DNA from: Alphaproteobacteria bacterium
Lineage (GTDB): Bacteria > Pseudomonadota > Alphaproteobacteria > UBA828
DNA: 64,000 bases
Direction: 5' to 3'
Assembly (NCBI GenBank): GCA_965214705.1
Contig: CBDCCI010000001.1
Span: forward strand, 480,001-544,000
A model generated the notes under the pieces. It saw only the letters and a program-made list of their open reading frames with translations. It was not told where the DNA came from and did not search any database. Each line of letters begins with the position of its first letter. Within the stretch, counting starts at the first letter, position 1. Positions 8,683 through 43,058 of this stretch are shown here, piece by piece. The translations under genes were made by a program, and so were the position numbers.

Positions 8683-10929
8683 GACGATCTCCTGTTGGTT
8701 CAACCTCCGGGACCCTGTGCCCCGTGGTGATGTCCTTTGTGATTCACGCGCGCGCAGGGGCAGCACCTGGCCCTGGGAAGTCTTGGGCGGGAGTCGGTGC
8801 GGAAGTTCGGCGAGTTGGTGCGGAAGATGGCGCCGCCGTGCCGGTGGGAACGGTGTTCCGCAGCAAATCCATTCCAGTGGTCATTACGGCGCCGTGCCGG
8901 GCGGGCCCGCTTGGGCCTGCCCGGCGTCTAGGCGCCGCCTTGAATGGTTCCGCGAATGGATTTGAGGCGGTGCAGCGTGACGCGTCGGCCCCGCGCGAGG
9001 GGCCGGCGCGCTGCGAGACGCGGCAGTTGGCGATTACGCGCAAGCCATCTTCACGGTCGCCGAACTTCACGGCCCGCCTTAGACTTCCTTGGGTCAGGCC
9101 GCAGGGAGCGGAGCGACCGGAGGACCCGCAGGGTTGCTGTCGCGAGCACGTGTGAAATCCTCGGACATCACGACGGAGTGCGCTGTGAATACCAAGTAGG
9201 AGGAAAGCATGAAGTAAACCAAACACTTGGTAGTGCTGATGATCGACCGGTGGCTGAAACGCCACCCTGCCTGACGAGGGGTGTTGGGCGGAAGGGGATC
9301 GCTAAGCTCCGCCGGTTTCCGACGGTGGGGCGAAAGAGCTGCGATCTGAACTGTACCGGGTGCGGGCCGTCGCTCGCGGGCCGGGCTACCACAGGACCTA
9401 TGGCGAGGTTGAACGAAGCACGTGACGGAAGCCTCTTTATTTAGATGTCCAACCCTCAATGGCCCGACGGGGCGGAGGGAGCGCGGTGAGAGCCGGTTGG
9501 TCTTCCGTCTGCCGACTGGCGGGTGTGTTGAACGCACCCGGGTACGGGTCAACCCTTCTATCCCGAACCCCAGAGCTGCAAGGGGTATAGCGTGCCGCCT
9601 AAGGGTCTCAGGTTTGTCATCGGAACACAGGAACCCATGCTGTTCGCCCGGCACGGAACCGGGCTAGCCGCGGAGAACGGAGACGGGCCGCATGGGGGCG
9701 GAGCCCTCGTAGTAGTCGGAGTGCGGGAAAGCCGCATACATGGCGAAGGGGGGCAGAAGGTGGATCGGCTATCGACTGACGGAGGAACTATCCGTGGACT
9801 CGGATAATCAGGCCGACATGGCCTGGTGGCTCCTCAACGTGCAGCGGAAGTTGTATCGGTGGAGTAAGGAGACGCCTGAAGGCGCTTACGGCGATGTGTG
9901 GAACTGGGAGCCACTTGCAAAACTCCCACCGATCCGCGCAATCTTCGCTGTGCATGGCACTCGATTGCCCAGAACAAGGGCAGACGAACGCCGGGCGTCG
10001 ACGGGCTGACGGTGGCGAGCATTGCCGCTGGCGATGGAGGTGTACCGCTCTTTCTGGACGAGCTTCGGGAGGCGCTGCGCGATGGCAGCTACCGACCGTC
10101 GCCCGCCCGGCGGAAGTGGATTCCGAAGCCGGGCAAGCCGGGGAAGTTCCGACCCCTTGGTATCCCCACCGTTGCTGACCGCGTGGTGCAATGCGCGGTC
10201 AAGAACATCCTGGAGCCAATTTTCGAGGCGCGTTTCTGGCAGGTCTCCTACGGGTTCAGGCCCGGACGGGGCTGCCATGGCGCACTCGAACATATCCGGC
10301 TGACCACTCGGACTCACAAGTCGAGAACCGATGGGAAGCTTCGCGACCCTCCCTATCAATGGGTGATTGAAGGCGACATCGAGGGCTGCTTCGACAACAT
10401 CGGCCATCACTACCTGATGGAGCGCGTACGGAAATCCGTCGCGGACCGGAAGGTCAACAGGCTGATCGTGCGGTTCCTCAAAGCCGGGGTATTGGAGGAC
10501 GTCAACTACAATCCGACAACCACCGGCACGCCTCAAGGGGGTGTCCTGTCTCCCCTGCTGGCCAACATCGCGCTGAGCGCGATCGAGGAGCGGTACTGGT
10601 GGTGGGTGAGGCACCCGCATGATCCCAATATCCGGACTGACGGAAGGCGGATGGCCGCGACACGGCGATTTCGGGACAGGGAGGCCGGGCGAACGGTCTT
10701 GAACGAAGCCGCTACGCGGAGTTAGCGGCGTAGAGTTCATTCATTTCCGAGGCGTCGCGGGTGCCGTTTGTTCTGTGCGTTCGCTTCCCGGTTGCGTCAG
10801 TGGCGCTCCGCCCGTCGGGTGGCGGATCCCCAGCAGCCTCCCGATCACCAGTGGTTAGCATCGACCCCTGCGACGGACCGTCGCCGGATCGGTCCGGCGG
10901 CGCGCCGTCGCGATCCAGGGAGATCGATA

Positions 10930-11808
10930 ATGACCGGGACCGCGTGCGACACGAACACCGTCACCCCTCTTCGCCAGCGCATGGAGGAGCAGCTCCGCAT
11001 CGCCAATCTGGCCGCGAGCACGTCCAAGGCCTACATCTGCGAGATCAAGAACCTGGCCAGGTACTACGACGCCTCGCCGGACGAGCTCGACGCCGAGCAG
11101 GTGCGCCAGTGGTACCTGGGGCGGATCGACAAGGGGCTCAGTCCGGGCACGACCAACGTCTCCTTCGCCGCGCTGAACTTCCTCTACATCGACACACTCG
11201 GCTGGCCTGACCATGTCGCCGGCCTGCGCTCCCGCAAGAAGCCCGGCAAGCTGCCGCGCTACATGTCGGAGCAGGAGGTCGAGCACCTCATCCTTGCGAC
11301 ACCCGACCTCCGCCACCGTGCTGCCATTGTCACCGGCTATGGCGGCGGGCTCCGCATCTCCGAGACCTTGGCCATCAAGGTCGGCGACATCCTGTCGGAG
11401 AAGAAGCTGCTGCACATCCCCTCCGGCAAAGGCGGCACCGAGAGAATGGCACCGTTGCCGGACATCGTCATCCACTACTTGCGCGTCTACTACAGGAACA
11501 TCTGGCCGCGTCCGACGAGCTGGCTCTTCTACGGCGTCTCGCTCGACAGGCCCATCGCAACGGAGACCTTGCAGGCCGCCTTCAGGAGGGCGCGCGACAT
11601 TGCCGAGCTCGACCGCAGCTACACCTTCCATTGCCTGCGCCATTCGGCGGCGACCCATCTCCTCGAGCGCGGCGGCGATATCGAGGTGATCCGGGACATG
11701 CTCGGCCATCGAAGCGCGAACACGACCCGTCACTACGCCCGCGTCACCGGCAAGATGTTCGAGGGCCTCGACCACCCGATCTCAGGCTTCGCAGCGTTGC
11801 GCAACTGA
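10930..11808 (+). CDS. Tyrosine recombinase (XerD/integron-integrase-like) of element A
   Basis: GLRISE, GKGG, HCLRHS.ATH, LGH and TTRHY catalytic motifs. RBS AGGGAG before ATG 10930. Confidence 0.92.
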   Translation: MTGTACDTNTVTPLRQRMEEQLRIANLAASTSKAYICEIKNLARYYDASPDELDAEQVRQWYLGRIDKGLSPGTTNVSFAALNFLYIDTLGWPDHVAGLRSRKKPGKLPRYMSEQEVEHLILATPDLRHRAAIVTGYGGGLRISETLAIKVGDILSEKKLLHIPSGKGGTERMAPLPDIVIHYLRVYYRNIWPRPTSWLFYGVSLDRPIATETLQAAFRRARDIAELDRSYTFHCLRHSAATHLLERGGDIEVIRDMLGHRSANTTRHYARVTGKMFEGLDHPISGFAALRN

Positions 11809-11814
11809 CGGCGC

Positions 11815-13056
11815 GTGGAGGCCGAACGCGCGGGCGTGGCGGAGATCTTCCGCCGCGCCGGCGCCGCTTTCCGTGAGCGCCACAAAGGGCGCATCGACGC
11901 CGCCCGGCTCAAGGTCATGGGCGCCATCGAGGCGTGCCGCACCGCCGTGCTCGGCGGCCACATGTACGCCTGCGAGGGCTGCGGGCGCGAGCATCCGCTC
12001 TTCAACTCCTGCCGCAACCGCCACTGCCCCACCTGCCAGGGTCTCGCCGCCAACCTCTGGAGCGAGGAGCGCGCCGGGGACATCCTGCCGGTGCCCTACT
12101 TCCATGTGGTCTTCACCCTGCCCAAGGAGGTTGCCGCCATTGCCTTCTGCAACCGCAGGGTGGTGTTCGACATCCTCTTCCGGGCCGTCGCCGAGACCCT
12201 GCGCACCATCGCCGCCGATCCCCGCCACGGCGGCATGCGCATCGGCGGCACCGCGGTCCTCCATACCTGGGATCAGAAGCTCCGCTTCCACCCGCACCTG
12301 CACGTGGTCGTGCCCAACGCGGGCTTCGACGTAGACAGTGGCGAGTGGAAGACGGGGAGCACCACCTTCCTCGCCCCCGTCAAGGTCCTCGGCAGCCTGT
12401 TCCGCCGCCTCTTCCTCGAGGAGCTCGCCCGCGCCCACGGCCGGGGGGACCTGGAGTTCCACGGCACCCTCGCCCACCTCGCCAATCCCGGCGAGTTCCA
12501 CGCCACGCTTGCCGCCGCCCGGGCCAGGGACTGGGTGGTCTACGCCAAGCGGCCCTTCCGCGGGCCTGAGCAGGTCTTCCGGTACCTCTCGCACTACACG
12601 CACAGGATCGCCATCTCCGACAGCCGCATCGTCTCCTTCGACGGCGAGACGGTCTCCTTCCGCCACCGAAAGCCCAAGGCGCCGGGGCAGAGAAAGCCGC
12701 GCTACGGCATCGCCACCGTGAGCGCCGACGAGTTCATCCGCCGCTTCCTGAGGCACGTCCTGCCGGACGGCATGCACCGCATTCGCTACTTCGGCATCCT
12801 CGCCAACGGCTGCCGCGCCAGCACGCTGGAGAGAGCACGCCAGGCTCTCGGCGCCCTCGGCTGCGCCGCCCCCGAGGGAAGCGTGGACGGCGCTCGGGCC
12901 GAGCCCGACGAAGAGCCCGAGATCGGCACCGCGCCCGTGGCCTGCCCCCACTGCGGCGGCGTCATGCGCCTCGTCCGCGAAATCCGCCGCCGCCATGAGC
13001 CCCGCTCGACGCGCGGCCCGCCGGCGCTGCCGCCGACCCACAGGGGGAAACCGTGA
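11815..13056 (+). CDS. IS91-family HUH Y2 transposase with Zn-binding domain
   Basis: C..C...CRNRHCPTC, HVVFTLP, HTW, HUH motif HPHLH, Y2 motif YLSHY. Confidence 0.93.
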   Translation: MEAERAGVAEIFRRAGAAFRERHKGRIDAARLKVMGAIEACRTAVLGGHMYACEGCGREHPLFNSCRNRHCPTCQGLAANLWSEERAGDILPVPYFHVVFTLPKEVAAIAFCNRRVVFDILFRAVAETLRTIAADPRHGGMRIGGTAVLHTWDQKLRFHPHLHVVVPNAGFDVDSGEWKTGSTTFLAPVKVLGSLFRRLFLEELARAHGRGDLEFHGTLAHLANPGEFHATLAAARARDWVVYAKRPFRGPEQVFRYLSHYTHRIAISDSRIVSFDGETVSFRHRKPKAPGQRKPRYGIATVSADEFIRRFLRHVLPDGMHRIRYFGILANGCRASTLERARQALGALGCAAPEGSVDGARAEPDEEPEIGTAPVACPHCGGVMRLVREIRRRHEPRSTRGPPALPPTHRGKP

Positions 13057-14215
13057 GACGCCCGCTCGCTTCGGCCCCGCGCAACGGCGCCAAAGCGCCG
13101 ACGCACGACCGAACCTGTCTCCGCTTGAGCCGGGCTGACAGCCCTCGGCTCACACCCCGCTCAGTCCTCGCAGCGTGCGCCCGCATGCCTGCCGAAAGAC
13201 CGGCGCGAGCGTCGATTTTATGCGCAACTCTGCTGCCGGTGGATGCCGCCTGACGCTGACATCAGCGCACTTTCCACATAGCTCAACTTCGCCTCTCGTG
13301 GCCCGCGGCTTCGTTCAAAAGGGTTGGGCAGGCTCTCTCTCGAGAGCCTGCCCAACCCTTAACCTTCTACCCGGTCCGATATGCCGACGACTTCCTGATC
13401 TTCGTGGCGGGCGGTTACGACGATGCGGCTGCTGAGAAGCAGGCGCTCGCGGACTGGCTGCGCGAGGAGATGGGGCTGACGCTATCGGAGGAGAAGACGC
13501 GGATCACCAGACTGACGGAAGGATTCCGGTTCCTCGGATGCCGGGTTCGTCTCAAAGGGGACGACCATGACGGCTACATGTGCCGGGTCGAAATCCCGAA
13601 GGAGGCGATCAGTGACTTCTGCCGGCGGATCAAGCAAGTGCTGAATCAGCGGACGCGGACGCGCTCGCTGAGAAGCGTGCTCCAGGAAATCAATCCAATC
13701 CTCCGGGGGTGGGGCCACTACTACCGCCACTGCATCGGGGCCAAGCGCATCCTGTCCAGTCTGGACTGGTATGTGTGGCGACGGCTCTGGCTGTGGATGC
13801 GGGGTAAGCACGACGGCGCCTCCCCGCGACGGGTGTACGCTTCTTGGTCGAGGCCGAGCCGGCAGTATCCCGGCGCTCGGGTCTGGGCCGATGGCGACAC
13901 TGAGCTGTACCAAATGGGCCGGATTCCGGTCATGCAGTTCAAGCTCAATTGGATGAAAACTCCTGCCTTCACGAAAGCCTTTGGCGAGCCGGGTGCATAA
14001 CGAAAGGTGCACGCCCGGTTCTGAGAGAGGGCGCGAGAAACCTGTGGTGCGTGAGGATCACCAGGCGCTCGCGTCCTACTCTACCGGACCCCTGTTTTTG
14101 TTTCCTGCAAGCTTTCACCGGCGCGGCGCCGGCGCAGCGATGAAAGGCGCGGTGCTGGCCGCGGGCTGGGCAACGGGATCGAGGGCGAGCCGCTCCCGGT
14201 GGCGCTCGTCACCGC

Positions 14216-15330: not shown

Positions 15331-15563
15331 TTTTGAACGAAGCCGCTACGCGGAGTTAGCGGCGTAGAGTTCATTCATTTCCGAGGCGTCGCGGGTGCCG
15401 TTTGTTCTGTGCGTTCGCTTCCCGGTTGCGTCAGTGGCGCTCCGCCCGTCGGGTGGCGGATCCCCAGCAGCCTCCCGATCACCAGTGGTTAGTATCGACC
15501 CCTGCGACGGACCGTCGCCGGATCGGTCCGGCGGCGCGCCGTCGCGATCCAGGGAGATCGATA

Positions 15564-16442
15564 ATGACCGGGACCGCGTGCGACACGAACACCGTCACCC
15601 CTCTTCGCCAGCGCATGGAGGAGCAGCTCCGCATCGCCAATCTGGCCGCGAGCACGTCCAAGGCCTACATCTGCGAGATCAAGAACCTGGCCAGGTACTA
15701 CGACGCCTCGCCGGACGAGCTCGACGCCGAGCAGGTGCGCCAGTGGTACCTGGGGCGGATCGACAAGGGGCTCAGTCCGGGCACGACCAACGTCTCCTTC
15801 GCCGCGCTGAACTTCCTCTACATCGACACACTCGGCTGGCCTGACCATGTCGCCGGCCTGCGCTCCCGCAAGAAGCCCGGCAAGCTGCCGCGCTACATGT
15901 CGGAGCAGGAGGTCGAGCACCTCATCCTTGCGACACCCGACCTCCGCCACCGTGCTGCCATTGTCACCGGCTATGGCGGCGGGCTCCGCATCTCCGAGAC
16001 CTTGGCCATCAAGGTCGGCGACATCCTGTCGGAGAAGAAGCTGCTGCACATCCCCTCCGGCAAAGGCGGCACCGAGAGAATGGCACCGTTGCCGGACATC
16101 GTCATCCACTACTTGCGCGTCTACTACAGGAACATCTGGCCGCGTCCGACGAGCTGGCTCTTCTACGGCGTCTCGCTCGACAGGCCCATCGCAACGGAGA
16201 CCTTGCAGGCCGCCTTCAGGAGGGCGCGCGACATTGCCGAGCTCGACCGCAGCTACACCTTCCATTGCCTGCGCCATTCGGCGGCGACCCATCTCCTCGA
16301 GCGCGGCGGCGATATCGAGGTGATCCGGGACATGCTCGGCCATCGAAGCGCGAACACGACCCGTCACTACGCCCGCGTCACCGGCAAGATGTTCGAGGGC
16401 CTCGACCACCCGATCTCAGGCTTCGCAGCGTTGCGCAACTGA
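15564..16442 (+). CDS. Tyrosine recombinase of element A
   Basis: Identical to 10930-11808. Confidence 0.92.
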   Translation: MTGTACDTNTVTPLRQRMEEQLRIANLAASTSKAYICEIKNLARYYDASPDELDAEQVRQWYLGRIDKGLSPGTTNVSFAALNFLYIDTLGWPDHVAGLRSRKKPGKLPRYMSEQEVEHLILATPDLRHRAAIVTGYGGGLRISETLAIKVGDILSEKKLLHIPSGKGGTERMAPLPDIVIHYLRVYYRNIWPRPTSWLFYGVSLDRPIATETLQAAFRRARDIAELDRSYTFHCLRHSAATHLLERGGDIEVIRDMLGHRSANTTRHYARVTGKMFEGLDHPISGFAALRN

Positions 16443-16448
16443 CGGCGC

Positions 16449-17690
16449 GTGGAGGCCGAACGCGCGGGCGTGGCGGAGATCTTCCGCCGCGCCGGCGCCG
16501 CTTTCCGTGAGCGCCACAAAGGGCGCATCGACGCCGCCCGGCTCAAGGTCATGGGCGCCATCGAGGCGTGCCGCACCGCCGTGCTCGGCGGCCACATGTA
16601 CGCCTGCGAGGGCTGCGGGCGCGAGCATCCGCTCTTCAACTCCTGCCGCAACCGCCACTGCCCCACCTGCCAGGGTCTCGCCGCCAACCTCTGGAGCGAG
16701 GAGCGCGCCGGGGACATCCTGCCGGTGCCCTACTTCCATGTGGTCTTCACCCTGCCCAAGGAGGTTGCCGCCATTGCCTTCTGCAACCGCAGGGTGGTGT
16801 TCGACATCCTCTTCCGGGCCGTCGCCGAGACCCTGCGCACCATCGCCGCCGATCCCCGCCACGGCGGCATGCGCATCGGCGGCACCGCGGTCCTCCATAC
16901 CTGGGATCAGAAGCTCCGCTTCCACCCGCACCTGCACGTGGTCGTGCCCAACGCGGGCTTCGACGTAGACAGTGGCGAGTGGAAGACGGGGAGCACCACC
17001 TTCCTCGCCCCCGTCAAGGTCCTCGGCAGCCTGTTCCGCCGCCTCTTCCTCGAGGAGCTCGCCCGCGCCCACGGCCGGGGGGACCTGGAGTTCCACGGCA
17101 CCCTCGCCCACCTCGCCAATCCCGGCGAGTTCCACGCCACGCTTGCCGCCGCCCGGGCCAGGGACTGGGTGGTCTACGCCAAGCGGCCCTTCCGCGGGCC
17201 TGAGCAGGTCTTCCGGTACCTCTCGCACTACACGCACAGGATCGCCATCTCCGACAGCCGCATCGTCTCCTTCGACGGCGAGACGGTCTCCTTCCGCCAC
17301 CGAAAGCCCAAGGCGCCGGGGCAGAGAAAGCCGCGCTACGGCATCGCCACCGTGAGCGCCGACGAGTTCATCCGCCGCTTCCTGAGGCACGTCCTGCCGG
17401 ACGGCATGCACCGCATTCGCTACTTCGGCATCCTCGCCAACGGCTGCCGCGCCAGCACGCTGGAGAGAGCACGCCAGGCTCTCGGCGCCCTCGGCTGCGC
17501 CGCCCCCGAGGGAAGCGTGGACGGCGCTCGGGCCGAGCCCGACGAAGAGCCCGAGATCGGCACCGCGCCCGTGGCCTGCCCCCACTGCGGCGGCGTCATG
17601 CGCCTCGTCCGCGAAATCCGCCGCCGCCATGAGCCCCGCTCGACGCGCGGCCCGCCGGCGCTGCCGCCGACCCACAGGGGGAAACCGTGA
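16449..17690 (+). CDS. IS91-family Y2 transposase
   Basis: Identical to 11815-13056. Confidence 0.93.
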   Translation: MEAERAGVAEIFRRAGAAFRERHKGRIDAARLKVMGAIEACRTAVLGGHMYACEGCGREHPLFNSCRNRHCPTCQGLAANLWSEERAGDILPVPYFHVVFTLPKEVAAIAFCNRRVVFDILFRAVAETLRTIAADPRHGGMRIGGTAVLHTWDQKLRFHPHLHVVVPNAGFDVDSGEWKTGSTTFLAPVKVLGSLFRRLFLEELARAHGRGDLEFHGTLAHLANPGEFHATLAAARARDWVVYAKRPFRGPEQVFRYLSHYTHRIAISDSRIVSFDGETVSFRHRKPKAPGQRKPRYGIATVSADEFIRRFLRHVLPDGMHRIRYFGILANGCRASTLERARQALGALGCAAPEGSVDGARAEPDEEPEIGTAPVACPHCGGVMRLVREIRRRHEPRSTRGPPALPPTHRGKP

Positions 17691-18327
17691 GACGCCCGCT
17701 CGCTTCGGCCCCGCGCAACGGCGCCAAAGCGCCGACGCACGACCGAACCTGTCTCCGCTTGAGCCGGGCTGACAGCCCTCGGCTCACACCCCGCTCAGTC
17801 CTCGCAGCGTGCGCCCGCATGCCTGCCGAAAGACCGGCGCGAGCGTCGATTTTATGCGCAACTCTGCTGCCGGTGGATGCCGCCTGACGCTGACATCAGC
17901 GCACTTTCCACATAGCTCAACTTCGCCTCTCGTGGCCCGCGGCTTCGTTCAAAAGGGTTGGGCAGGCTCTCTCTCGAGAGCCTGCCCAACCCTTAACCAT
18001 GTTCAACTGCACATAATGAATTGGCCTGTATCGGTCGTGCGCAGCAGGACCGATACAGGCATTGAGCTGAGCCGCGCTGCACGGCCGTAGTGCCGGGCTA
18101 TGGGGAAAGTAACCGCTGGGTGGGAGCCGATTAGGCCGAAGCGGTGCAACCTGTTGGTGTCGCTGGCGGCGCCGGCACTCTGAATCTCCACTTATCAGGT
18201 TGCGACGCGGCTGTGCAGGGGCTCGCGACGATGTTTCGCCGCCGGGCAGCACGAAGCGGGCGCAGGAGCGGTCGCGGCGCGGCGGCCGGGGGGACTGTTG
18301 TCGGACCTTGTCGGTTCTGACGCATCG

Positions 18328-19548
18328 TCACGGCGGTCGGGTATTCGTCGCCCGCATGGCTGCTTGGGGCTGCGGCTCAAGAATGACGGTTTGCCGCAGC
18401 GTTGCCTCGCCGCACTGGCGGCACACGGTGATGTCGATCCCCGTCAGTCGCAGCATCATCTGCTGCGTCGTTTCCGGCTCCCGCGGTTCAGGGGCAGGCT
18501 GGCCGAGCAGGTCTCGGCAGCGGGCGAGCTTGCGAGCCCGGCAGCGATTGGCGAGCAAGCCGTAGTGGCGCAGGCGGGTGAAGCCGCGCGGGAGGACGTG
18601 CAGGAGGAAGCGGCGGATGAACTCGTCGACGTCGAGACGCATCACCTTGACCTTGTTGCCGTCAGCGTAGTCGCGCCAACGGAAGCGAACGTGCTCGCCG
18701 TCGAAGTCGACGAGGCGATGATTGGCGATGGCAGCCTTGTGGGTGTAGCGCCCGAGATAGGCCAGAACGTGCCCGGCGCCGGCGAACGGGGCCTTGGTGT
18801 AGACCACCCAGTCGTTCGACCGCAGCGCGGTCTTCAGACACTCGAACTCGCGGCTGTCGTCACCACCGCCGACGACCTTGAGCCGGAGTTCGCCGTCGCG
18901 GTGCGCGGCGCCGAGGAAGTCGAGATACTTGCCGCGGAAGACCTTCGAGAGCGCGACCGTGGGGAACAGGAAGCCCTTGCGCGCGGGAGTGAGCCAGCGC
19001 TCTCTGTCCGGGCTCAGACCGCCGTCGGTGACGATACAGTGGACATGGATGTGCTGTCCCAGATTCTGCCCCCAAGTGTGCAGCACCATGGTGATGCCGA
19101 GCTCGCCGCCGAGCCAGCGGGGATTGCGGCCGAACTCGAGCAGGGTCTGGGAGGCGGCCTTGAAGAGCAGCCTGTAGATGAGCGCGGCATTGCCCTGGGC
19201 CACGGGGTTGAGCTCGTGGGGCAGGGTGAACACGACATGCCAGTAGTCGATGTCGAGCAGATCGGCGCACTGACGCTCAACCCACCTGGTCTGCGAGAGG
19301 GTCTGGCACTTGGGGCAATGACGGTTCCGGCACGAGGCGTACTGGATCGTCACCGCCCCGCAGTGATCGCATTCTGCCTTGAACCCGCCGAGCACAGCGG
19401 TGCGGCAGTTCACCAGCGCGTCGACGACCCTCTGCTGCTGGGCCGAGAGCAGATGTGTCTCGCCATAGGCGTCGCCGCGCTCGCGCAGGATGTCCGCGAC
19501 CTCCAGCGCCGGCCGTGTGGCTGGCGCCGCGTGGCCGACATGAGCCAC
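18328..19548 (-). CDS. IS91-family HUH Y2 transposase
   Basis: CRNRHCPKCQ, HVVFTLP, HIHVH and YLGRY motifs. Confidence 0.92.
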   Translation of the reverse strand: MAHVGHAAPATRPALEVADILRERGDAYGETHLLSAQQQRVVDALVNCRTAVLGGFKAECDHCGAVTIQYASCRNRHCPKCQTLSQTRWVERQCADLLDIDYWHVVFTLPHELNPVAQGNAALIYRLLFKAASQTLLEFGRNPRWLGGELGITMVLHTWGQNLGQHIHVHCIVTDGGLSPDRERWLTPARKGFLFPTVALSKVFRGKYLDFLGAAHRDGELRLKVVGGGDDSREFECLKTALRSNDWVVYTKAPFAGAGHVLAYLGRYTHKAAIANHRLVDFDGEHVRFRWRDYADGNKVKVMRLDVDEFIRRFLLHVLPRGFTRLRHYGLLANRCRARKLARCRDLLGQPAPEPREPETTQQMMLRLTGIDITVCRQCGEATLRQTVILEPQPQAAMRATNTRPP

Positions 19549-19551
19549 CGG

Positions 19552-20406
19552 TCAGGCCTGGGCAGGACGCGGAAACTCCAGCAGGTCCAGGGGCGACGGC
19601 GTGGCGGACGTCTTGTCGTGAGCAAGGTGAAGGTAGCGCATGGTCGAGCGGATTGAGGTGTGCCCGAGGCGGCGTTGGATGACATGCAGCTCGACGCCGG
19701 CCTCGAGGAGCCCGGTGGCGTAGCAATGGCGCAGCGTGTGGATCCCGCCGGGCTTGGCGATCCCGGCTTTGTCCTTGGCTCGATCGTAAACGTGTGCTGG
19801 CCCATGGCGCGTCATCGGCCGGCCGGGAATCCGACCGGGGAACAGCCAGTGCTCGGGCCGTACCCGCTGCCAGTACTCGCGCAGCTCGTCGAGCAGCCGG
19901 GGCGAGAGCGGGACGTAGCGGTCCTTGTTGCCCTTGCCCTGATCGACGCGCAGGCACATCCGCTGTGAGTCGATATCGCTGATCTGCAACCGGCCGAGCT
20001 CGCTCGCCCGAAGCCCCGCTGCATAGGCCGTCATCAGCAAGGCGCGGTGCTTGCGGTTGATGGTGACGCTGAACAGCCGCACCAGTTCGTCTTGGTTGAG
20101 CAGTACGGGCAGGGTGGAAGGCGTCTTGGCGAAGGGCAGATAGAAGTGCGGCTCGGGCAAGCCCAGCGTGATGCGATAGAGGAAGCGGATCCCTTGGCGA
20201 GCGCTGTTGCAGCTCTGCCAAGCCAGCCCCCGCTCTTCGTGAAGAAAGATGAGGTACTCCTGGACTTCCTCCGCTGAGATGTGCTCGGGGCTGCGACCGT
20301 AGTGAACCGCGAGCCCGGAGACCGAGTTGAGGTAGGACTTCCTGGTGTTCTCGGCGAAGCCGCGAACCGTCATGTCGTTGATCATGCGCTGGCGAAGTGC
20401 CGTCAT
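19552..20406 (-). CDS. Tyrosine recombinase of element B
   Basis: GLRASE, GKGNKDR, HTLRH, LGH and TMRY motifs. Confidence 0.92.
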   Translation of the reverse strand: MTALRQRMINDMTVRGFAENTRKSYLNSVSGLAVHYGRSPEHISAEEVQEYLIFLHEERGLAWQSCNSARQGIRFLYRITLGLPEPHFYLPFAKTPSTLPVLLNQDELVRLFSVTINRKHRALLMTAYAAGLRASELGRLQISDIDSQRMCLRVDQGKGNKDRYVPLSPRLLDELREYWQRVRPEHWLFPGRIPGRPMTRHGPAHVYDRAKDKAGIAKPGGIHTLRHCYATGLLEAGVELHVIQRRLGHTSIRSTMRYLHLAHDKTSATPSPLDLLEFPRPAQA

Positions 20407-20630
20407 GGGGCGTCTCCCTCTGGGTTTGGTCTGTCACGAAGACACGCCCATGCTCTTGCTCGCCGGCTTGGCGGTCGACGACCATCGATCAACGAGGGAG
20501 AAACAGGATTCGACCCTGCGCCCAGACGCTGGAGCGAACGGCCACACTCAACTTACGCGCGGCAAGGAGATCACTCTGGGCACCCGGCGGCCGAGGCGCC
20601 CCGCCGCGGAACGCGGCTCAGTTCAGGACG

Positions 20631-21585
20631 GATTATGTTGCGCCGGTGGTTATGTTGCGGCCCGGCGCTGGGCGGCGCAGCTGCACGCGCTTTGCGGTTT
20701 CTCGGCAACATAACCTCAGTCCCGCGGGGAGGGTCGCGTGATGCCGCGCGACGCTTCCGAGCTGGCACGGCGCCTCGCGCGCGACGCCGAGGCGGTCTGC
20801 CGCCACTATCTGTCGAAGGGTCGGCGTCAGGGCCGCTACTGGATGGTGGGCGACGTGCGCAACACGCCCGGCCGGTCGATGTACGTGCGGCTGAGCGGGC
20901 CGGAGGCCGGCCCTGGGGCCGCCGGGCGCTGGAGCGATGCGGCCTCGGCCGAGCACGGCGACCTGCTCGACGTGATCCGCGAGAGCTGCGGGCTCACGGA
21001 GTTCCGCGAGGTCGCCGAGGAGGCGCGGCGCTTCCTGTCGCTGCCCCGGGCCGAACCGCCGGTCGCGTCAAGAGCGCCCGCCCCGAGGGGCTCGGCCGAA
21101 GCTGCGCGCAGGCTCTGGGCGATCGCCAGACCGATCGCCGGCACGCTGGCCGAGGCGTACCTGCGCAACCGCGGGATCGTACATCTGACGAGCTGCGAAG
21201 CGCTCCGCTTCCATCCGCGCTGCTGGTATCGCCCGGATGGGCATGCGCCGACCGAGACCTGGCCGGCGATGATCGCCGCCGTCACCGACCTCTCGGGCGC
21301 GATCACCGGCGTGCATCGCACCTGGATCGCCCCGGACGGGTTGGGCAAGGCGCCGATCGATACGCCGCGACGCGCGATGGGCGACCTTCTCGGCCATGCC
21401 GTCCGGTTCGGTGCGGCCGGCAACGTCCTCGCCGCCGGCGAAGGCATCGAGACGATGCTGTCGCTGCGATGCGCGCTGCCCGCCATGCCCATGGCGGCGG
21501 CGCTCTCGGCGAACCACCTCGCCGCCCTCGAACTGGCTGCCGGTCTGCGACGGCTCTACATCGCGCGAGACAACGATCCCGCAGG
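20631..21585. repeat. Left arm of the 955-bp inverted repeat (partner 27895-28788 + 36219-36279)
   Basis: Toprim translations are identical up to ARDNDPAG; the right arm is split by element A copy 4. Confidence 0.9.
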
Positions 21586-23070: not shown

Positions 23071-23714
23071 ACCTGCGAGAAGCGATCGAACGCTACGTGC
23101 TCTGGCGACAGGCTCACGGCGCGAAGTTCACGAGCGGCGCGAGCTTGTTGCGCGGCTTCCTTCACCATGCCGATGGCGAAGCCGCCTGCGACGCGATCAA
23201 CGCCGGGCAGGTACGGGCGTATCTCGCGGGCGAAGGCGTGTCGAGGCGCCACTGCGAGAACAGATACTATGCGCTTGCCGGCTTCTGGCGCCATGCGATC
23301 AGCCGCGGCCATGCGTCCCGCTCACCGATGCCGGCCGACGCACCGAGATCGCCCGTCCGAGCGCCGCCCTACATCTACTCGCGCGACGAACTTGCGCGCC
23401 TGTTCGACCCCGCGACCGTGGAAGCGAGCCGGCGCCGCGCAGTCCAGCTGGACGCGGTGACGTTCCGGACGCTGCTTCTGCTCTTGAACGAAGCCGCTAC
23501 GCGGAGTTAGCGGCGTAGAGTTCATTCATTTCCGAGGCGTCGCGGGTGCCGTTTGTTCTGTGCGTTCGCTTCCCGGTTGCGTCAGTGGCGCTCCGCCCGT
23601 CGGGTGGCGGATCCCCAGCAGCCTCCCGATCACCAGTGGTTAGCATCGACCCCTGCGACGGACCGTCGCCGGATCGGTCCGGCGGCGCGCCGTCGCGATC
23701 CAGGGAGATCGATA

Positions 23715-24593
23715 ATGACCGGGACCGCGTGCGACACGAACACCGTCACCCCTCTTCGCCAGCGCATGGAGGAGCAGCTCCGCATCGCCAATCTGGCCGC
23801 GAGCACGTCCAAGGCCTACATCTGCGAGATCAAGAACCTGGCCAGGTACTACGACGCCTCGCCGGACGAGCTCGACGCCGAGCAGGTGCGCCAGTGGTAC
23901 CTGGGGCGGATCGACAAGGGGCTCAGTCCGGGCACGACCAACGTCTCCTTCGCCGCGCTGAACTTCCTCTACATCGACACACTCGGCTGGCCTGACCATG
24001 TCGCCGGCCTGCGCTCCCGCAAGAAGCCCGGCAAGCTGCCGCGCTACATGTCGGAGCAGGAGGTCGAGCACCTCATCCTTGCGACACCCGACCTCCGCCA
24101 CCGTGCTGCCATTGTCACCGGCTATGGCGGCGGGCTCCGCATCTCCGAGACCTTGGCCATCAAGGTCGGCGACATCCTGTCGGAGAAGAAGCTGCTGCAC
24201 ATCCCCTCCGGCAAAGGCGGCACCGAGAGAATGGCACCGTTGCCGGACATCGTCATCCACTACTTGCGCGTCTACTACAGGAACATCTGGCCGCGTCCGA
24301 CGAGCTGGCTCTTCTACGGCGTCTCGCTCGACAGGCCCATCGCAACGGAGACCTTGCAGGCCGCCTTCAGGAGGGCGCGCGACATTGCCGAGCTCGACCG
24401 CAGCTACACCTTCCATTGCCTGCGCCATTCGGCGGCGACCCATCTCCTCGAGCGCGGCGGCGATATCGAGGTGATCCGGGACATGCTCGGCCATCGAAGC
24501 GCGAACACGACCCGTCACTACGCCCGCGTCACCGGCAAGATGTTCGAGGGCCTCGACCACCCGATCTCAGGCTTCGCAGCGTTGCGCAACTGA
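23715..24593 (+). CDS. Tyrosine recombinase of element A
   Basis: Identical to copy 1. Confidence 0.92.
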   Translation: MTGTACDTNTVTPLRQRMEEQLRIANLAASTSKAYICEIKNLARYYDASPDELDAEQVRQWYLGRIDKGLSPGTTNVSFAALNFLYIDTLGWPDHVAGLRSRKKPGKLPRYMSEQEVEHLILATPDLRHRAAIVTGYGGGLRISETLAIKVGDILSEKKLLHIPSGKGGTERMAPLPDIVIHYLRVYYRNIWPRPTSWLFYGVSLDRPIATETLQAAFRRARDIAELDRSYTFHCLRHSAATHLLERGGDIEVIRDMLGHRSANTTRHYARVTGKMFEGLDHPISGFAALRN

Positions 24594-24599
24594 CGGCGC

Positions 24600-25841
24600 G
24601 TGGAGGCCGAACGCGCGGGCGTGGCGGAGATCTTCCGCCGCGCCGGCGCCGCTTTCCGTGAGCGCCACAAAGGGCGCATCGACGCCGCCCGGCTCAAGGT
24701 CATGGGCGCCATCGAGGCGTGCCGCACCGCCGTGCTCGGCGGCCACATGTACGCCTGCGAGGGCTGCGGGCGCGAGCATCCGCTCTTCAACTCCTGCCGC
24801 AACCGCCACTGCCCCACCTGCCAGGGTCTCGCCGCCAACCTCTGGAGCGAGGAGCGCGCCGGGGACATCCTGCCGGTGCCCTACTTCCATGTGGTCTTCA
24901 CCCTGCCCAAGGAGGTTGCCGCCATTGCCTTCTGCAACCGCAGGGTGGTGTTCGACATCCTCTTCCGGGCCGTCGCCGAGACCCTGCGCACCATCGCCGC
25001 CGATCCCCGCCACGGCGGCATGCGCATCGGCGGCACCGCGGTCCTCCATACCTGGGATCAGAAGCTCCGCTTCCACCCGCACCTGCACGTGGTCGTGCCC
25101 AACGCGGGCTTCGACGTAGACAGTGGCGAGTGGAAGACGGGGAGCACCACCTTCCTCGCCCCCGTCAAGGTCCTCGGCAGCCTGTTCCGCCGCCTCTTCC
25201 TCGAGGAGCTCGCCCGCGCCCACGGCCGGGGGGACCTGGAGTTCCACGGCACCCTCGCCCACCTCGCCAATCCCGGCGAGTTCCACGCCACGCTTGCCGC
25301 CGCCCGGGCCAGGGACTGGGTGGTCTACGCCAAGCGGCCCTTCCGCGGGCCTGAGCAGGTCTTCCGGTACCTCTCGCACTACACGCACAGGATCGCCATC
25401 TCCGACAGCCGCATCGTCTCCTTCGACGGCGAGACGGTCTCCTTCCGCCACCGAAAGCCCAAGGCGCCGGGGCAGAGAAAGCCGCGCTACGGCATCGCCA
25501 CCGTGAGCGCCGACGAGTTCATCCGCCGCTTCCTGAGGCACGTCCTGCCGGACGGCATGCACCGCATTCGCTACTTCGGCATCCTCGCCAACGGCTGCCG
25601 CGCCAGCACGCTGGAGAGAGCACGCCAGGCTCTCGGCGCCCTCGGCTGCGCCGCCCCCGAGGGAAGCGTGGACGGCGCTCGGGCCGAGCCCGACGAAGAG
25701 CCCGAGATCGGCACCGCGCCCGTGGCCTGCCCCCACTGCGGCGGCGTCATGCGCCTCGTCCGCGAAATCCGCCGCCGCCATGAGCCCCGCTCGACGCGCG
25801 GCCCGCCGGCGCTGCCGCCGACCCACAGGGGGAAACCGTGA
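24600..25841 (+). CDS. IS91-family Y2 transposase
   Basis: Identical to copy 1. Confidence 0.93.
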   Translation: MEAERAGVAEIFRRAGAAFRERHKGRIDAARLKVMGAIEACRTAVLGGHMYACEGCGREHPLFNSCRNRHCPTCQGLAANLWSEERAGDILPVPYFHVVFTLPKEVAAIAFCNRRVVFDILFRAVAETLRTIAADPRHGGMRIGGTAVLHTWDQKLRFHPHLHVVVPNAGFDVDSGEWKTGSTTFLAPVKVLGSLFRRLFLEELARAHGRGDLEFHGTLAHLANPGEFHATLAAARARDWVVYAKRPFRGPEQVFRYLSHYTHRIAISDSRIVSFDGETVSFRHRKPKAPGQRKPRYGIATVSADEFIRRFLRHVLPDGMHRIRYFGILANGCRASTLERARQALGALGCAAPEGSVDGARAEPDEEPEIGTAPVACPHCGGVMRLVREIRRRHEPRSTRGPPALPPTHRGKP

Positions 25842-26675
25842 GACGCCCGCTCGCTTCGGCCCCGCGCAACGGCGCCAAAGCGCCGACGCACGACCGAACC
25901 TGTCTCCGCTTGAGCCGGGCTGACAGCCCTCGGCTCACACCCCGCTCAGTCCTCGCAGCGTGCGCCCGCATGCCTGCCGAAAGACCGGCGCGAGCGTCGA
26001 TTTTATGCGCAACTCTGCTGCCGGTGGATGCCGCCTGACGCTGACATCAGCGCACTTTCCACATAGCTCAACTTCGCCTCTCGTGGCCCGCGGCTTCGTT
26101 CAAAAGGGTTGGGCAGGCTCTCGAGAGAGAGCCTGCCCAACCCTTAACCTTGTACGGCGCGGGCCTACGATTCGGGGAGGCGACTCGCCTCTCCCTTGCC
26201 GACGTCGATCTGGCGAACGCCGTCCTGACCATCCGGGCCACCAAGTTCTACAAGAGCCGGCTGGTCCCGGTCGGCCCTCAGCTTGCAGCGCTTCTGGGAA
26301 GCCACGTGACCCTGCGCCAGCGCGCCGGACTGGTGGAAGGCCGGGACGCGTTGCTCCTGGCGAACCGGGACGGGACGCGGCTCGCCAGTAGCACGGTGCT
26401 GGCCGCGTTCGACACGCTGAGGCGCCTCGCCGGGGTCCACCGTCCCGCGGCGGGGCGGACGATCCCGCGGCTGCACGATCTGCGGCACAGCTTCGCCGTC
26501 CACCGCCTGACGAGCTGGTATCGGCAAGGCGCTGATGTGCAACGGCTGCTGCCGGTGCTCTCCACCTATCTCGGTCACGCCGATCTGGAGGGCACGAAGA
26601 TCTATCTGTCGATGACGCCGGAGCTCCTGGAAGAGGCGTCGCTACGGTTCGCCCGCTATGCGGCGGGAGGTCGGC

Positions 26676-28742: not shown

Positions 28743-29096
28743 GCGACCCTCCCCGCGGGACTGAGGTTATGTTGCCGAGAAACCGCAAGGTTAAGGGTTG
28801 GGCAGGCTCTCTCTCGAGAGCCTGCCCAACCCTTTTGAACGAAGCCGCGGGCCACGAGAGGCGAAGTTGAGCTATGTGGAAAGTGCGCTGATGTCAGCGT
28901 CAGGCGGCATCCACCGGCAGCAGAGTTGCGCATAAAATCGACGCTCGCGCCGGTCTTTCGGCAGGCATGCGGGCGCACGCTGCGAGGACTGAGCGGGGTG
29001 TGAGCCGAGGGCTGTCAGCCCGGCTCAAGCGGAGACAGGTTCGGTCGTGCGTCGGCGCTTTGGCGCCGTTGCGCGGGGCCGAAGCGAGCGGGCGTC

Positions 29097-30338
29097 TCAC
29101 GGTTTCCCCCTGTGGGTCGGCGGCAGCGCCGGCGGGCCGCGCGTCGAGCGGGGCTCATGGCGGCGGCGGATTTCGCGGACGAGGCGCATGACGCCGCCGC
29201 AGTGGGGGCAGGCCACGGGCGCGGTGCCGATCTCGGGCTCTTCGTCGGGCTCGGCCTGAGCGCCGTCCACGCTTCCCTCGGGGGCGGCGCAGCCGAGGGC
29301 GCCGAGAGCCTGGCGTGCTCTCTCCAGCGTGCTGGCGCGGCAGCCGTTGGCGAGGATGCCGAAGTAGCGAATGCGGTGCATGCCGTCCGGCAGGACGTGC
29401 CTCAGGAAGCGGCGGATGAACTCGTCGGCGCTCACGGTGGCGATGCCGTAGCGCGGCTTTCTCTGCCCCGGCGCCTTGGGCTTTCGGTGGCGGAAGGAGA
29501 CCGTCTCGCCGTCGAAGGAGACGATGCGGCTGTCGGAGATGGCGATCCTGTGCGTGTAGTGCGACAGGTACCGGAAGACCTGCTCAGGCCCGCGGAAGGG
29601 CCGCTTGGCGTAGACCACCCAGTCCCTGGCCCGGGCGGCGGCAAGCGTGGCGTGGAACTCGCCGGGATTGGCGAGGTGGGCGAGGGTGCCGTGGAACTCC
29701 AGGTCCCCCCGGCCGTGGGCGCGGGCGAGCTCCTCGAGGAAGAGGCGGCGGAACAGGCTGCCGAGGACCTTGACGGGGGCGAGGAAGGTGGTGCTCCCCG
29801 TCTTCCACTCGCCACTGTCTACGTCGAAGCCCGCGTTGGGCACGACCACGTGCAGGTGCGGGTGGAAGCGGAGCTTCTGATCCCAGGTATGGAGGACCGC
29901 GGTGCCGCCGATGCGCATGCCGCCGTGGCGGGGATCGGCGGCGATGGTGCGCAGGGTCTCGGCGACGGCCCGGAAGAGGATGTCGAACACCACCCTGCGG
30001 TTGCAGAAGGCAATGGCGGCAACCTCCTTGGGCAGGGTGAAGACCACATGGAAGTAGGGCACCGGCAGGATGTCCCCGGCGCGCTCCTCGCTCCAGAGGT
30101 TGGCGGCGAGACCCTGGCAGGTGGGGCAGTGGCGGTTGCGGCAGGAGTTGAAGAGCGGATGCTCGCGCCCGCAGCCCTCGCAGGCGTACATGTGGCCGCC
30201 GAGCACGGCGGTGCGGCACGCCTCGATGGCGCCCATGACCTTGAGCCGGGCGGCGTCGATGCGCCCTTTGTGGCGCTCACGGAAAGCGGCGCCGGCGCGG
30301 CGGAAGATCTCCGCCACGCCCGCGCGTTCGGCCTCCAC
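29097..30338 (-). CDS. IS91-family Y2 transposase (copy 4)
   Basis: One amino-acid difference from copy 1. Confidence 0.93.
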   Translation of the reverse strand: MEAERAGVAEIFRRAGAAFRERHKGRIDAARLKVMGAIEACRTAVLGGHMYACEGCGREHPLFNSCRNRHCPTCQGLAANLWSEERAGDILPVPYFHVVFTLPKEVAAIAFCNRRVVFDILFRAVAETLRTIAADPRHGGMRIGGTAVLHTWDQKLRFHPHLHVVVPNAGFDVDSGEWKTGSTTFLAPVKVLGSLFRRLFLEELARAHGRGDLEFHGTLAHLANPGEFHATLAAARARDWVVYAKRPFRGPEQVFRYLSHYTHRIAISDSRIVSFDGETVSFRHRKPKAPGQRKPRYGIATVSADEFIRRFLRHVLPDGMHRIRYFGILANGCRASTLERARQALGALGCAAPEGSVDGAQAEPDEEPEIGTAPVACPHCGGVMRLVREIRRRHEPRSTRGPPALPPTHRGKP

Positions 30339-31125
30339 GCGCCGTCAGTTGCGCAACGCTGCGAAGCCTGAGATCGGGTGGTCGAGGCCCTCGAACATCT
30401 TGCCGGTGACGCGGGCGTAGTGACGGGTCGTGTTCGCGCTTCGATGGCCGAGCATGTCCCGGATCACCTCGATATCGCCGCCGCGCTCGAGGAGATGGGT
30501 CGCCGCCGAATGGCGCAGGCAATGGAAGGTGTAGCTGCGGTCGAGCTCGGCAATGTCGCGCGCCCTCCTGAAGGCGGCCTGCAAGGTCTCCGTTGCGATG
30601 GGCCTGTCGAGCGAGACGCCGTAGAAGAGCCAGTTCGTCGGACGCGGCCAGATGTTCCTGTAGTAGACGCGCAAGTAGTGGATGACGATGTCCGGCAACG
30701 GTGCCATTCTCTCGGTGCCGCCTTTGCCGGAGGGGATGTGCAGCAGCTTCTTCTCCGACAGGATGTCGCCGACCTTGATGGCCAAGGTCTCGGAGATGCG
30801 GAGCCCGCCGCCATAGCCGGTGACAATGGCAGCACGGTGGCGGAGGTCGGGTGTCGCAAGGATGAGGTGCTCGACCTCCTGCTCCGACATGTAGCGCGGC
30901 AGCTTGCCGGGCTTCTTGCGGGAGCGCAGGCCGGCGACATGGTCAGGCCAGCCGAGTGTGTCGATGTAGAGGAAGTTCAGCGCGGCGAAGGAGACGTTGG
31001 TCGTGCCCGGACTGAGCCCCTTGTCGATCCGCCCCAGGTACCACTGGCGCACCTGCTCGGCGTCGAGCTCGTCCGGCGAGGCGTCGTAGTACCTGGCCAG
31101 GTTCTTGATCTCGCAGATGGTTAAG

Positions 31126-33217: not shown

Positions 33218-33524
33218 GTTAAGGGTTGGGCAGGCTCTCTCTCGAGAGCCTGCCCAACCCTTTTGAACGAAGCCGCGGGCCACGAGAGGCGAAGTTGAGC
33301 TATGTGGAAAGTGCGCTGATGTCAGCGTCAGGCGGCATCCACCGGCAGCAGAGTTGCGCATAAAATCGACGCTCGCGCCGGTCTTTCGGCAGGCATGCGG
33401 GCGCACGCTGCGAGGACTGAGCGGGGTGTGAGCCGAGGGCTGTCAGCCCGGCTCAAGCGGAGACAGGTTCGGTCGTGCGTCGGCGCTTTGGCGCCGTTGC
33501 GCGGGGCCGAAGCGAGCGGGCGTC

Positions 33525-34766: not shown

Positions 34767-34772
34767 GCGCCG

Positions 34773-35651: not shown

Positions 35652-36276
35652 TATCGATCTCCCTGGATCGCGACGGCGCGCCGCCGGACCGATCCGGCGA
35701 CGGTCCGTCGCAGGGGTCGATACTAACCACTGGTGATCGGGAGGCTGCTGGGGATCCGCCACCCGACGGGCGGAGCGCCACTGACGCAACCGGGAAGCGA
35801 ACGCACAGAACAAACGGCACCCGCGACGCCTCGGAAATGAATGAACTCTACGCCGCTAACTCCGCGTAGCGGCTTCGTTCAAGTAGGCCTTGGACGTGCT
35901 CGCGGCCAGATTGGCGATGCGGAGCTGCTCCTCCATGCGCTGGCGAAGAGGGGTGACGGTGTTCGTGTCGCACGCGGTCCCGGTCATTATCGATCTCCCT
36001 GGATCGCGACGGCGCGCCGCCGGACCGATCCGGCGACGGTCCGTCGCAGGGGTCGATACTAACCACTGGTGATCGGGAGGCTGCTGGGGATCCGCCACCC
36101 GACGGGCGGAGCGCCACTGACGCAACCGGGAAGCGAACGCACAGAACAAACGGCACCCGCGACGCCTCGGAAATGAATGAACTCTACGCCGCTAACTCCG
36201 CGTAGCGGCTTCGTTCAAAGCGCGTGCAGCTGCGCCGCCCAGCGCCGGGCCGCAACATAACCACCGGCGCAACATA

Positions 36277-41891: not shown

Positions 41892-41984
41892 GGGCCACCC
41901 CTTAATCCGATTCGCCAATGCATGACCAGGGAAAAGTGCAGGCGGGACCGCGACCGAAATCTGCGGCCCCGCCTGCGTGCCGCC

Positions 41985-42757: not shown

Positions 42758-43058
42758 CGCGATCTCTCCTGTGTGGCTCGTGGTCAAGGCGGAGAGTCAG
42801 CCCCGAAATCAGATCCGCTGGAAGTATGGGGGCCCGATACCGCTTACCATGATCCAGATGGCTTGGCGCTGGCTGAAGCTGCAACCGGAAAGCGCGATCA
42901 CGAAGTGGTTCCACGCCTACGTCGCCAGGGATGCCGGTGGCGGGAGGGACCGGCGAGCGAGGAAGCGGGCGATCGTGGGGGTCGCGCGCAAGCTGCTGAT
43001 CGCGCTGTGGCGCTATGCCACCCAAGGACTGGTGCCTGAGGGCGCCATCGTCTCCTGA

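Follow-up and report, generated by a model that had tools for sequence, protein, structure and literature searches.

Two divergent mobile elements, A and B, each encoding a tyrosine recombinase and an HUH Y2 transposase, lie in a 64,000-nt stretch of the genome of an Alphaproteobacteria bacterium (UBA828; assembly GCA_965214705.1, contig CBDCCI010000001.1, positions 480,001-544,000, forward strand), hereafter the window. To which group of transposons do they belong, and what might be the role of the short inverted repeat that each of them carries just inside its right end? An earlier interpretation, drawn from the letters of the window and hereafter called the sequence-only reading, had proposed that A and B share a Helitron2-like end architecture and represent a distinct integrase-Y2 class of rolling-circle elements. 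According to our results, A and B are new members of the known integrase-carrying subgroup of IS91-family insertion sequences (ISs). Combined with this placement, we tentatively suggest, at a little under an even chance, that the subterminal inverted copy might serve as a built-in guide or splint, since in most relatives it appears to match not only the left tip of the element but also a short word of the target DNA.

The ends of A and B were set by means of the left and right ends of their multiple copies in the genome (three contigs, 7.9 Mb, 67% G+C), together with empty sites. Full-length copies number 66 for element A and 8 for element B; counted by ends, A has 93 on the left and 91 on the right (about 90 copies in total), and B has 11 and 10. 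The 14-nt tip of A, TTGAACGAAGCCGC, overlaps the small 5' hairpin and has a perfect reverse complement immediately before the 3' hairpin, just as had been noticed previously (coordinates are listed in the table below). Matches to this tip with at most one mismatch occur 12 times in the window, compared to 0.04 expected from shuffles, and correspond to two sites in each of six copies. In B, the terminal repeat, the hairpin and the inverted copy described earlier were recovered as well, but the copy agrees with the left tip at 13 of 15 positions and is not perfect. The sequence-only reading had also presented the ends of B as different in sequence from those of A. This holds for the two hairpins, which differ completely, but not for the terminal motifs, which are variants of one motif, TGAAC..AGCCGC; at the very tip, the left motif common to A and B reads (T/C)TGAAC..GCCGC and overlaps a small GC hairpin. 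In A as in B, the 3' inverted copy ends 46 nt from the right terminus, with a strong hairpin coming straight after it and then a short tail. Thus, an asymmetric layout without target-site duplication (TSD) is indeed common to A and B, whose transposases share 41% identity.

The 3' hairpin of A is very stable (-28.1 kcal/mol, z -9.1, with none of 200 shuffles folding as well), whereas the small 5' hairpins have only weak folding energies (z -0.78 in A and -2.33 in B). Variants of A that are approximately 80% identical to it (A1 and A2) keep the repeat, and they keep the 3' hairpin via compensatory changes. The 90%-identical variant B' likewise retains the repeat, and its 3' hairpin displays one compensatory change from G-C to T-A.

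The loop of the 3' hairpin of A exists in two mirror forms, GAGA in 82 and TCTC in 7 of the 91 right ends, with two ends carrying something else; within the window, the forms can be compared at 13319-13360 versus 26104-26145 and 44719-44760. We considered a flipping of the hairpin at every transposition and rejected it: the TCTC copies are those nearly identical to copy 1 of the window, so a single inherited inversion of the hairpin loop is enough, and this is likely how the two forms arose.

How far does such an end layout extend beyond the two elements? A scan of one genome per species with an alignment of the A and B transposases yielded 80 loci, in bacterial records, with transposases 47-78% identical to that of A; 74 of them had a recombinase gene immediately upstream in the same orientation. 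We analysed 69 of these loci after excluding eleven, of which five were truncated by a contig end and six had no recombinase gene upstream. The latter six were candidates for same-clade transposase loci devoid of a recombinase; all of them proved to be cut by a contig end or disrupted and, for this reason, cannot separate the roles of the two genes. A generic detector, built to pair a stretch of the 5' leader with an inverted repeat in the 3' trailer and to require a hairpin directly after the latter, recognised the layout in 35 of the 69 loci, against 5/69 and 5/69 when either side was reversed. With a 12-nt core motif, G[AGC]AC[GT]AA[ACG][CT][CT]GC, derived from the same loci in which it was counted, a 5' match was found 60-320 nt upstream of the recombinase gene in 61/69 loci and an inverted copy (at most 2 mismatches) downstream of the transposase gene in 54/69; the 474 kb examined outside the elements contained 5 occurrences of this motif. 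In 59 of the 61 loci, the 5' motif is succeeded by a small xCGC..GCGx hairpin, and in 46 of 51 loci a hairpin with a stem score of at least 8 begins 2-13 nt after the 3' core (36 distinct stem sequences, median z -2.3).

The two core copies covary. At core position 2, they agree in 52 of 53 pairs (permutation mean 20.4, maximum 33), and at position 8 in all 53 (mean 18.8, maximum 30). Conservation of the layout with covariation across integrase and Y2 gene pairs, which had been put forward as a check of the sequence-only reading, is therefore what we observe.

The most informative pattern, however, emerged from the DNA flanking the left ends. For this purpose, we took multi-copy families from six other genomes, together with the copy pairs L072/L079 and L006/L007 found among the 80 loci. 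Within families, copies that are 99-100% identical lose their similarity precisely where the core begins, at its first G. The two bases just upstream vary from copy to copy, and the next three to six bases make up a flank motif that is degenerate yet family-specific, as expected of a target. The flank word situated 2 nt upstream of the core is the reverse complement of the 3 nt that separate the hairpin foot from the 3' core and its two adjoining bases; hereafter, we refer to this trinucleotide, read as its reverse complement, as the guide. The modal flank trinucleotide equals the guide in six of the seven multi-copy families. In G003, the flank GGG(T/C)CA (8 of 9 fetched copies, 11 found) goes with the guide TCA, the ninth copy and one tandem copy being located behind the ..CACA tails of other copies. 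Family G002 combines the flank (C/G)CC (4/4) with CCC, G006f2 combines (C/T)CA (3/3) with CCA, the pair L006/L007 combines GAC (2/2) with GAC, and G007 has CGT in 8 of 9 informative copies (18 fetched) with the guide CGT. A looser agreement is seen in G006f1, with the guide CCG and the flank CCG in 6 of 12 fetched copies (about 29 found), the rest being CCA twice, TCG, TCA, TCT and CCT. In the pair L072/L079, the flank GCA (2/2) agrees with the guide TCA in 2 of 3 nt.

Single loci behave in the same manner. Of 51 such loci, 28 have the same trinucleotide as flank and guide, and 43 have agreement in at least 2 of 3 nt; when the guides were shuffled among the 51 loci in 5000 permutations, which treat the loci as independent and ignore their relatedness, a mean of 4.8 and a maximum of 13 were identical. 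The two spacer bases agree in only 11/51. Among loci sharing the core GAACGAACCCGC, the flanks CCA, CCG, TCA and TGG each pair with a guide of the same word. The families G006f1 and G006f2, with 94% identity between their recombinases and 70% between their transposases, have different target words, each following its own guide, and the target words also differ between G006f1 and G007, whose transposases are 80% identical. Two further correspondences were considered and discarded: the 3' tails do not covary with the guide, remaining TTCACA-like whatever the guide trinucleotide, and no right flank mimicking the left tip was seen in the families G005 and G003, so that such mimicry was rejected for families other than A.

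These comparisons bear directly on an alternative in which the two inverted copies are nothing but binding sites for one element-encoded protein, be it the transposase through its zinc domain or the recombinase, with no DNA-DNA pairing involved. The copies would then resemble ordinary terminal inverted repeats, with the right-end cleavage displaced outward by the hairpin. Identity covariation of the copies fits this scenario as well as it fits pairing, a systematic mismatch at core positions 4-5 is easier to accept in a protein site than in a duplex, and a Zn_Tnp_IS91 domain is present in both transposases. What it handles poorly is the target. The target word tracks the 3 nt at the hairpin foot even when the 12-nt core is the same, and it does so despite 94%-identical recombinases or 80%-identical transposases, while a target read by a protein would require the protein to covary too. 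We consider protein binding as the sole role of the copies rather unlikely, although it deserves to be kept in mind.

Returning to the guide or splint reading, we might picture transposition as follows. A and B would move as single-stranded rolling-circle intermediates, and they insert without duplicating the target. Their left end is of the ter type, with a GAAC-type tip and a small GC hairpin, and the right end of the ori type, with a long hairpin and a tail of 4-7 nt; these labels are assigned because of homology with IS91. On the displaced single strand, the subterminal copy could pair with the left tip, bringing both ends together beside the hairpin for circle closure. In most relatives, where three bases stay free at the hairpin foot, the copy could pair, in addition, with 3 nt of target DNA that lie 2 nt away from the tip. 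Joining would then take place on a continuous template, and the copy would select and align the target strand, acting as a guide or splint much like the hairpin-foot guides of IS608. For A and B themselves, target choice would instead come down to a TT dinucleotide and, in A only, a right-flank TTGnnCG resembling the element's own left tip. Which strand moves cannot be read from the sequence because the pairing scheme is symmetric, and the target word on the left flank fits a top-strand, Helitron-like polarity equally well.

The insertion sites of A are consistent with part of this picture. Four identical intact copies of the intron interrupted by copy 1 exist elsewhere and read ..ACGGTC|TTCTACCC.. 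at the empty site. Comparison of empty and filled sites revealed no TSD, the only leftover being a 2-nt ambiguity, which arises because TT starts the element and usually also comes after it. Among the 66 full copies, the left/right dinucleotides are TT/TT in 45, TT/AT in 5, TT/CT in 3, TT/GA in 3, CT/TT in 2 and AT/AT in 1; in the remaining 7 (TT/CG), another IS sits in the tail. The insertion point carried TT in 10 of 16 informative empty sites. We also considered a 2-bp TSD of TT and rejected it, given that TT was gained at one side only in 4 of the 6 non-TT empty sites. Of 81 unique right flanks, 67 have T at +1 and 78 have T at +2; G is present at +3 in 45, while positions +6 and +7 hold C in 60 and G in 49, respectively. 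From these preferences comes the consensus TTGnnCG, which resembles the left tip of A, TTGAACG. The left flank exhibits a weak pyrimidine bias at -1 (G in 3 of 89 unique flanks), as well as A at -7 and -8. In keeping with a right-flank target resembling its own tip, A often directly precedes the left end of another A or B copy, forming head-to-tail arrays. No shared left-flank read-through products were seen among the 93 left ends of A, while head-to-tail tandems do exist. Right-end read-through was rejected as well: the recurrent right flank CGAACTTCC.. belongs to an independent DDE IS that targets CTTAAC in the tail of A, and the insertion of this IS accounts for the recurrent non-TT right flanks.

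Do A and B form a class of their own, as the sequence-only reading had it? Both transposases pass the IS91-family model NF033538 of NCBIfam (382.5 bits for A and 432.1 for B, with a cut-off of 125), and the Pfam domains Y2_Tnp (E 2.7e-54 in A, 6.3e-59 in B) and Zn_Tnp_IS91 (4.3e-30 and 3.7e-28) were found in each; in the 413-aa translation of the A transposase, the HPHLH and YLSHY motifs can be read. ISfinder lists IS91-family members with an upstream phage-integrase gene, under names such as ISWz1, ISSod25 and ISShvi3, and such members have the same two-gene organisation as A and B. Tyrosine recombinases in IS91 elements have already been mentioned in print and placed in an integron-like subgroup (bioRxiv 10.1101/542381). 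The ends point in the same direction. According to a published account, one end of IS91-family elements, terIS, lies upstream of tnpA and has a single subterminal palindrome beside the cleavage sequence 5'-GTTC (CTCG in IS91), and the other, oriIS, has one or two palindromes; the target tetranucleotide adjoins oriIS, insertion generates no TSD, a bottom-strand single-stranded circle serves as the active intermediate, and only four members have been shown to transpose (PMC13181058). The tips, palindromes, tail, lack of TSD and ter-like target of A and B follow the same terIS/oriIS logic. Overall, the claim of a distinct class could not be upheld.

To compare the ends base by base, we used plasmid records containing IS1294, IS91 and an IS801-like element, and set the limits of these elements via database-wide alignment or a nested insertion. 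The left ends of IS1294 and the IS801-like element consist of GAAC and then GGCAGCC..GGCTGC, and IS91 starts with CGAG and then the same palindrome; the right ends of all three read ..AATTCCTAT(A)C(G/A)T and are followed by GAAC or CAAG. Thus, the family shares with A and B an HUH Y2 transposase with a zinc-binding N-terminus, functionally different ends without TSD, a left end composed of a GAAC-type tip and a small GC palindrome, and a right end composed of palindrome(s) and a short tail; with A, it also shares a target that resembles the ter cleavage sequence and adjoins the ori end. The differences are equally clear. Unlike the classical members, with transposases only 23-28% identical to theirs, A and B have an extra recombinase gene and repeat the tip in inverted form immediately before the right-end hairpin, and most of their relatives carry target information partly or wholly on the left flank. 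No inverted left-tip copy exists in IS91, IS1294 and the IS801-like element, where the best inverted match between the left 30 nt and the last 220 nt scores 6-8 and lies off the tip, against 14 in A and 11 in B. The inverted copy is a feature specific to the clade of A and B.

The presence of a recombinase gene raises the question of whether the ends serve that enzyme instead. On the single-stranded circle, the right-end copy, hairpin, tail and left tip might fold into a bipartite, attC-like hairpin to be integrated by the IntI-like enzyme at TT sites, with the Y2 transposase only making the circle. Integron sites have the core G/TTRRRY and the inverse core RYYYAAC, with crossover at G/TT. The TTGAAC and GTTCAA of A fit TTRRRY and RYYYAA, the base before TT being C at the circle junction (AACC/TT), and the best models for the A and B recombinases are Xer and integron integrase, yet with scores below the cut-offs (TIGR02249, 130-158 bits against 265). 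The published placement in an integron-like subgroup (10.1101/542381) and the 2-nt ambiguity of the junction, with the target dinucleotide falling to either side, are in line with this scheme too. However, G precedes TT in only 3 of the 89 unique left flanks of A, while integron sites are G/TT, and families with 94%-identical recombinases differ in their target trinucleotide. Moreover, classical IS91 members display ter-like targets and no TSD while having no recombinase at all (PMC13181058). An attC-like role of the ends is, in our opinion, unlikely.

As for the Helitron2-like architecture, this part of the earlier interpretation was confirmed, the likeness being architectural only. According to the published description, the repeat at the 5' tip of Helitron2 pairs with bases downstream of it to form a hairpin, and its 3' counterpart lies subterminally, immediately before a hairpin (Bao and Jurka 2013, PMC3627910); the short asymmetric terminal inverted repeats, the 5' repeat lying in a hairpin and the lack of TSD of Helitron2/Helentrons are found in A and B point by point (PMC3627910). 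Such a match might tempt one to suppose common descent with the eukaryotic elements. Yet Helitron2/Helentrons reside in eukaryotic hosts and encode a RepHel protein with a Pif1-like helicase and no recombinase, while the Pfam search detected no helicase domain in the A and B transposases, only Zn_Tnp_IS91 and Y2_Tnp in 413 and 406 aa, that is, ordinary IS91-family transposases. Additionally, the design of the left end is homologous to that of IS91, IS801 and IS1294, which are devoid of the repeat, and a short repeat beside a hairpin can arise convergently in single-strand transposons, as IS608 also combines a guide with a hairpin. Having found no evidence of common descent of A and B, or of their ends, with Helitron2, we regard such descent as highly improbable.

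A closer functional parallel is offered by IS608. In this element, the cleavage sites are recognised through pairing with four nucleotides situated 5' to the foot of each subterminal hairpin (PMC3201880, PMC5934647), and the left cleavage site is the target itself, outside the element (PMC3201880). Like in IS608, the bases at the 5' hairpin foot of the relatives of A and B match, as a statistical tendency, the target flanking the left end, and both systems rely on HUH single-strand chemistry. The differences lie in the enzyme, the IS608 transposase being a dimeric Y1 and those of A and B having Y2_Tnp with two tyrosines, and in the guide, which comprises 4 nt without a long repeat in IS608 but 3 nt continuous with a 12-nt copy of the tip in the relatives, with a 2-nt spacer. 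Furthermore, the guide rule of the relatives, unlike that of IS608, is known from sequence statistics only.

We are aware that several observations weigh against the guide or splint reading, in addition to the relatedness of loci that the permutations ignore. Base pairing and one protein reading two identical sites predict the same covariation. The core-motif counts are descriptive because the motif was derived from those same loci, and 15/69 loci have no 3' copy that can be recognised with it. Core position 4 agrees in 26 of 53 pairs and differs systematically in the other 27 (5' GGAC versus 3' GGAG), so a duplex between the tip and the 3' copy would be interrupted there. The reading does not explain the 2-nt spacer between the left tip and the target word, and it gives no account of the recombinase. 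A and B themselves have no free guide trinucleotide because their hairpin begins right where the repeat ends; G005, an A-like family with 6 copies, shares this arrangement, and none of the three has a visible left-flank word. The target preference of A is clear on the right flank and weak on the left. Finally, in the 6 of 16 empty sites without TT, the target dinucleotide ends up right of the element in 3, left in 1 and on neither side in 2, and since it can go right, left or neither, one fixed cleavage position cannot explain such sites.

Keeping these points in mind, a generalisation may still be formulated, though we consider it more doubtful than not: integrase-carrying IS91 elements might choose their sites by DNA-DNA pairing, with the subterminal repeat guiding on the left tip and a 3-nt target word, so that target choice could be reprogrammed by three bases; the same logic may explain the asymmetric repeats of Helitron2. 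In the literature that we searched, which did not extend to ISfinder/TnPedia entries and supplements, there was no description of a guide rule or of the end layout for integrase-carrying IS91 elements. Relative to that literature, the subgroup-wide end layout and the guide-target rule are new here.

Table. Features of elements A and B in the window (positions count from the first nucleotide of the window).
Feature	Position	Strand	Remarks
Element A, copy 1	10699-13364	+	2666 bp; inside the open reading frame of a group II intron reverse transcriptase
A left terminal repeat TTGAACGAAGCCGC	10699-10712	+	ter-like tip
A small 5' hairpin GCCGCTA/TAGCGGC	10708-10714 / 10723-10729	+	overlaps the terminal repeat
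A tyrosine recombinase gene	10930-11808	+	Phage_integrase + Phage_int_SAM_4, Xer/IntI-like (Pfam/NCBIfam)
A IS91-family HUH Y2 transposase gene	11815-13056	+	Zn_Tnp_IS91 + Y2_Tnp (Pfam/NCBIfam); starts seven bases after the recombinase gene
A subterminal inverted copy of the left terminal repeat	13305-13318	-	
A 3' hairpin	13319-13360	+	19-bp perfect stem, 4-nt loop (folding)
A 3' tail AACC	13361-13364	+	followed by the target, usually TTGnnCG
Element A, copy 2	15333-17998	+	
Element B	~18020-20624	-	~2605 bp; right end may reach 18017, left end 20626
B 3' hairpin	18024-18060	-	13-bp; z -4.35
B subterminal inverted copy TTGAGCTGAGCCGCG	18062-18076	+	13/15 positions match the left tip
B IS91-family Y2 transposase gene	18328-19548	-	406 aa (Pfam/NCBIfam)
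B tyrosine recombinase gene	19552-20406	-	Pfam/NCBIfam
B left terminal repeat CTGAACTGAGCCGCG	20610-20624	-	with small hairpin GCCGCG/CGCGGC
Element A, copy 3	23484-26149	+	hairpin loop in mirror form
Element A, positions 336-2666 of a split copy	28789-31119	-	split by nested A + IS; positions 1-336 at 35883-36218
Element A, full copy nested inside the split copy	33217-35882	-	
Element A, copy broken at position 1306	37689-44764	+	A parts 37689-38994 and 43404-44764; the insert is an IS110-family element, itself interrupted

Several neighbours of the A and B copies are worth describing in their own right. Copy 1 of A splits a group II intron reverse transcriptase/maturase reading frame (RVT_1, GIIM; window 9898-10698 and 13365-14000), and a diverged copy of that intron at C2:689572 of this genome holds A at the same position. 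In the region 28789-36218, a full A and a DDE element are nested within another A copy, at position 336. This DDE IS (DDE_Tnp_1; window 31120-33216, 2.1 kb, ends CGAACTTCC../..GGAAGTTCG) has 16 copies in the genome, 8 of which sit in the CTTAAC of the 3' tail of A, in both orientations. The IS110-family element (DEDD_Tnp_IS110 + Transposase_20, 1649 bp) has an intact copy at L144 (G000:C1:39433-41081) and occupies one fixed site within the transposase gene of A, ..CTCTTCA|AACTCCTGCC.., at A position 1306, in approximately 20 genomic places; its window copy (38995-43403) is split by a further insert. It looks like an IS specialised on another IS. In the flanks of B copies, for instance at window 17999-18019 and 20625-20660, there are short palindromic sequences of the TTATGTTCAACTGCACATAA / CTATGTTGAGCTCAACATAG type, perhaps an extragenic palindrome that is repeated in the genome or else the termini of a small element.

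Such elements are abundant elsewhere, too. Two other genomes (loci L095-L103, L104-L115 and L116-L133) contain 33 and 54 transposase matches to integrase and IS91 elements. In the family G007f2, the matches end at transposase residue 326 in about 22 places, which suggests that an interrupted or deleted form of the element has been proliferating.

End and target recognition by IS91-family elements, and by Helitrons, is poorly understood. A conserved, covarying repeat beside the right-end hairpin provides a concrete hypothesis for termination and circle closure, and the three-base rule would make the target word predictable from the element's own sequence in a way that mutation can test. In practical terms, the ends of these abundant elements become callable from a single copy, which should facilitate their annotation. 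If the guide rule is true, guide-directed single-strand transposition would extend from the Y1 transposons of the IS200/IS605 group to Y2 rolling-circle elements, and reprogrammable insertion by the latter may be envisaged.

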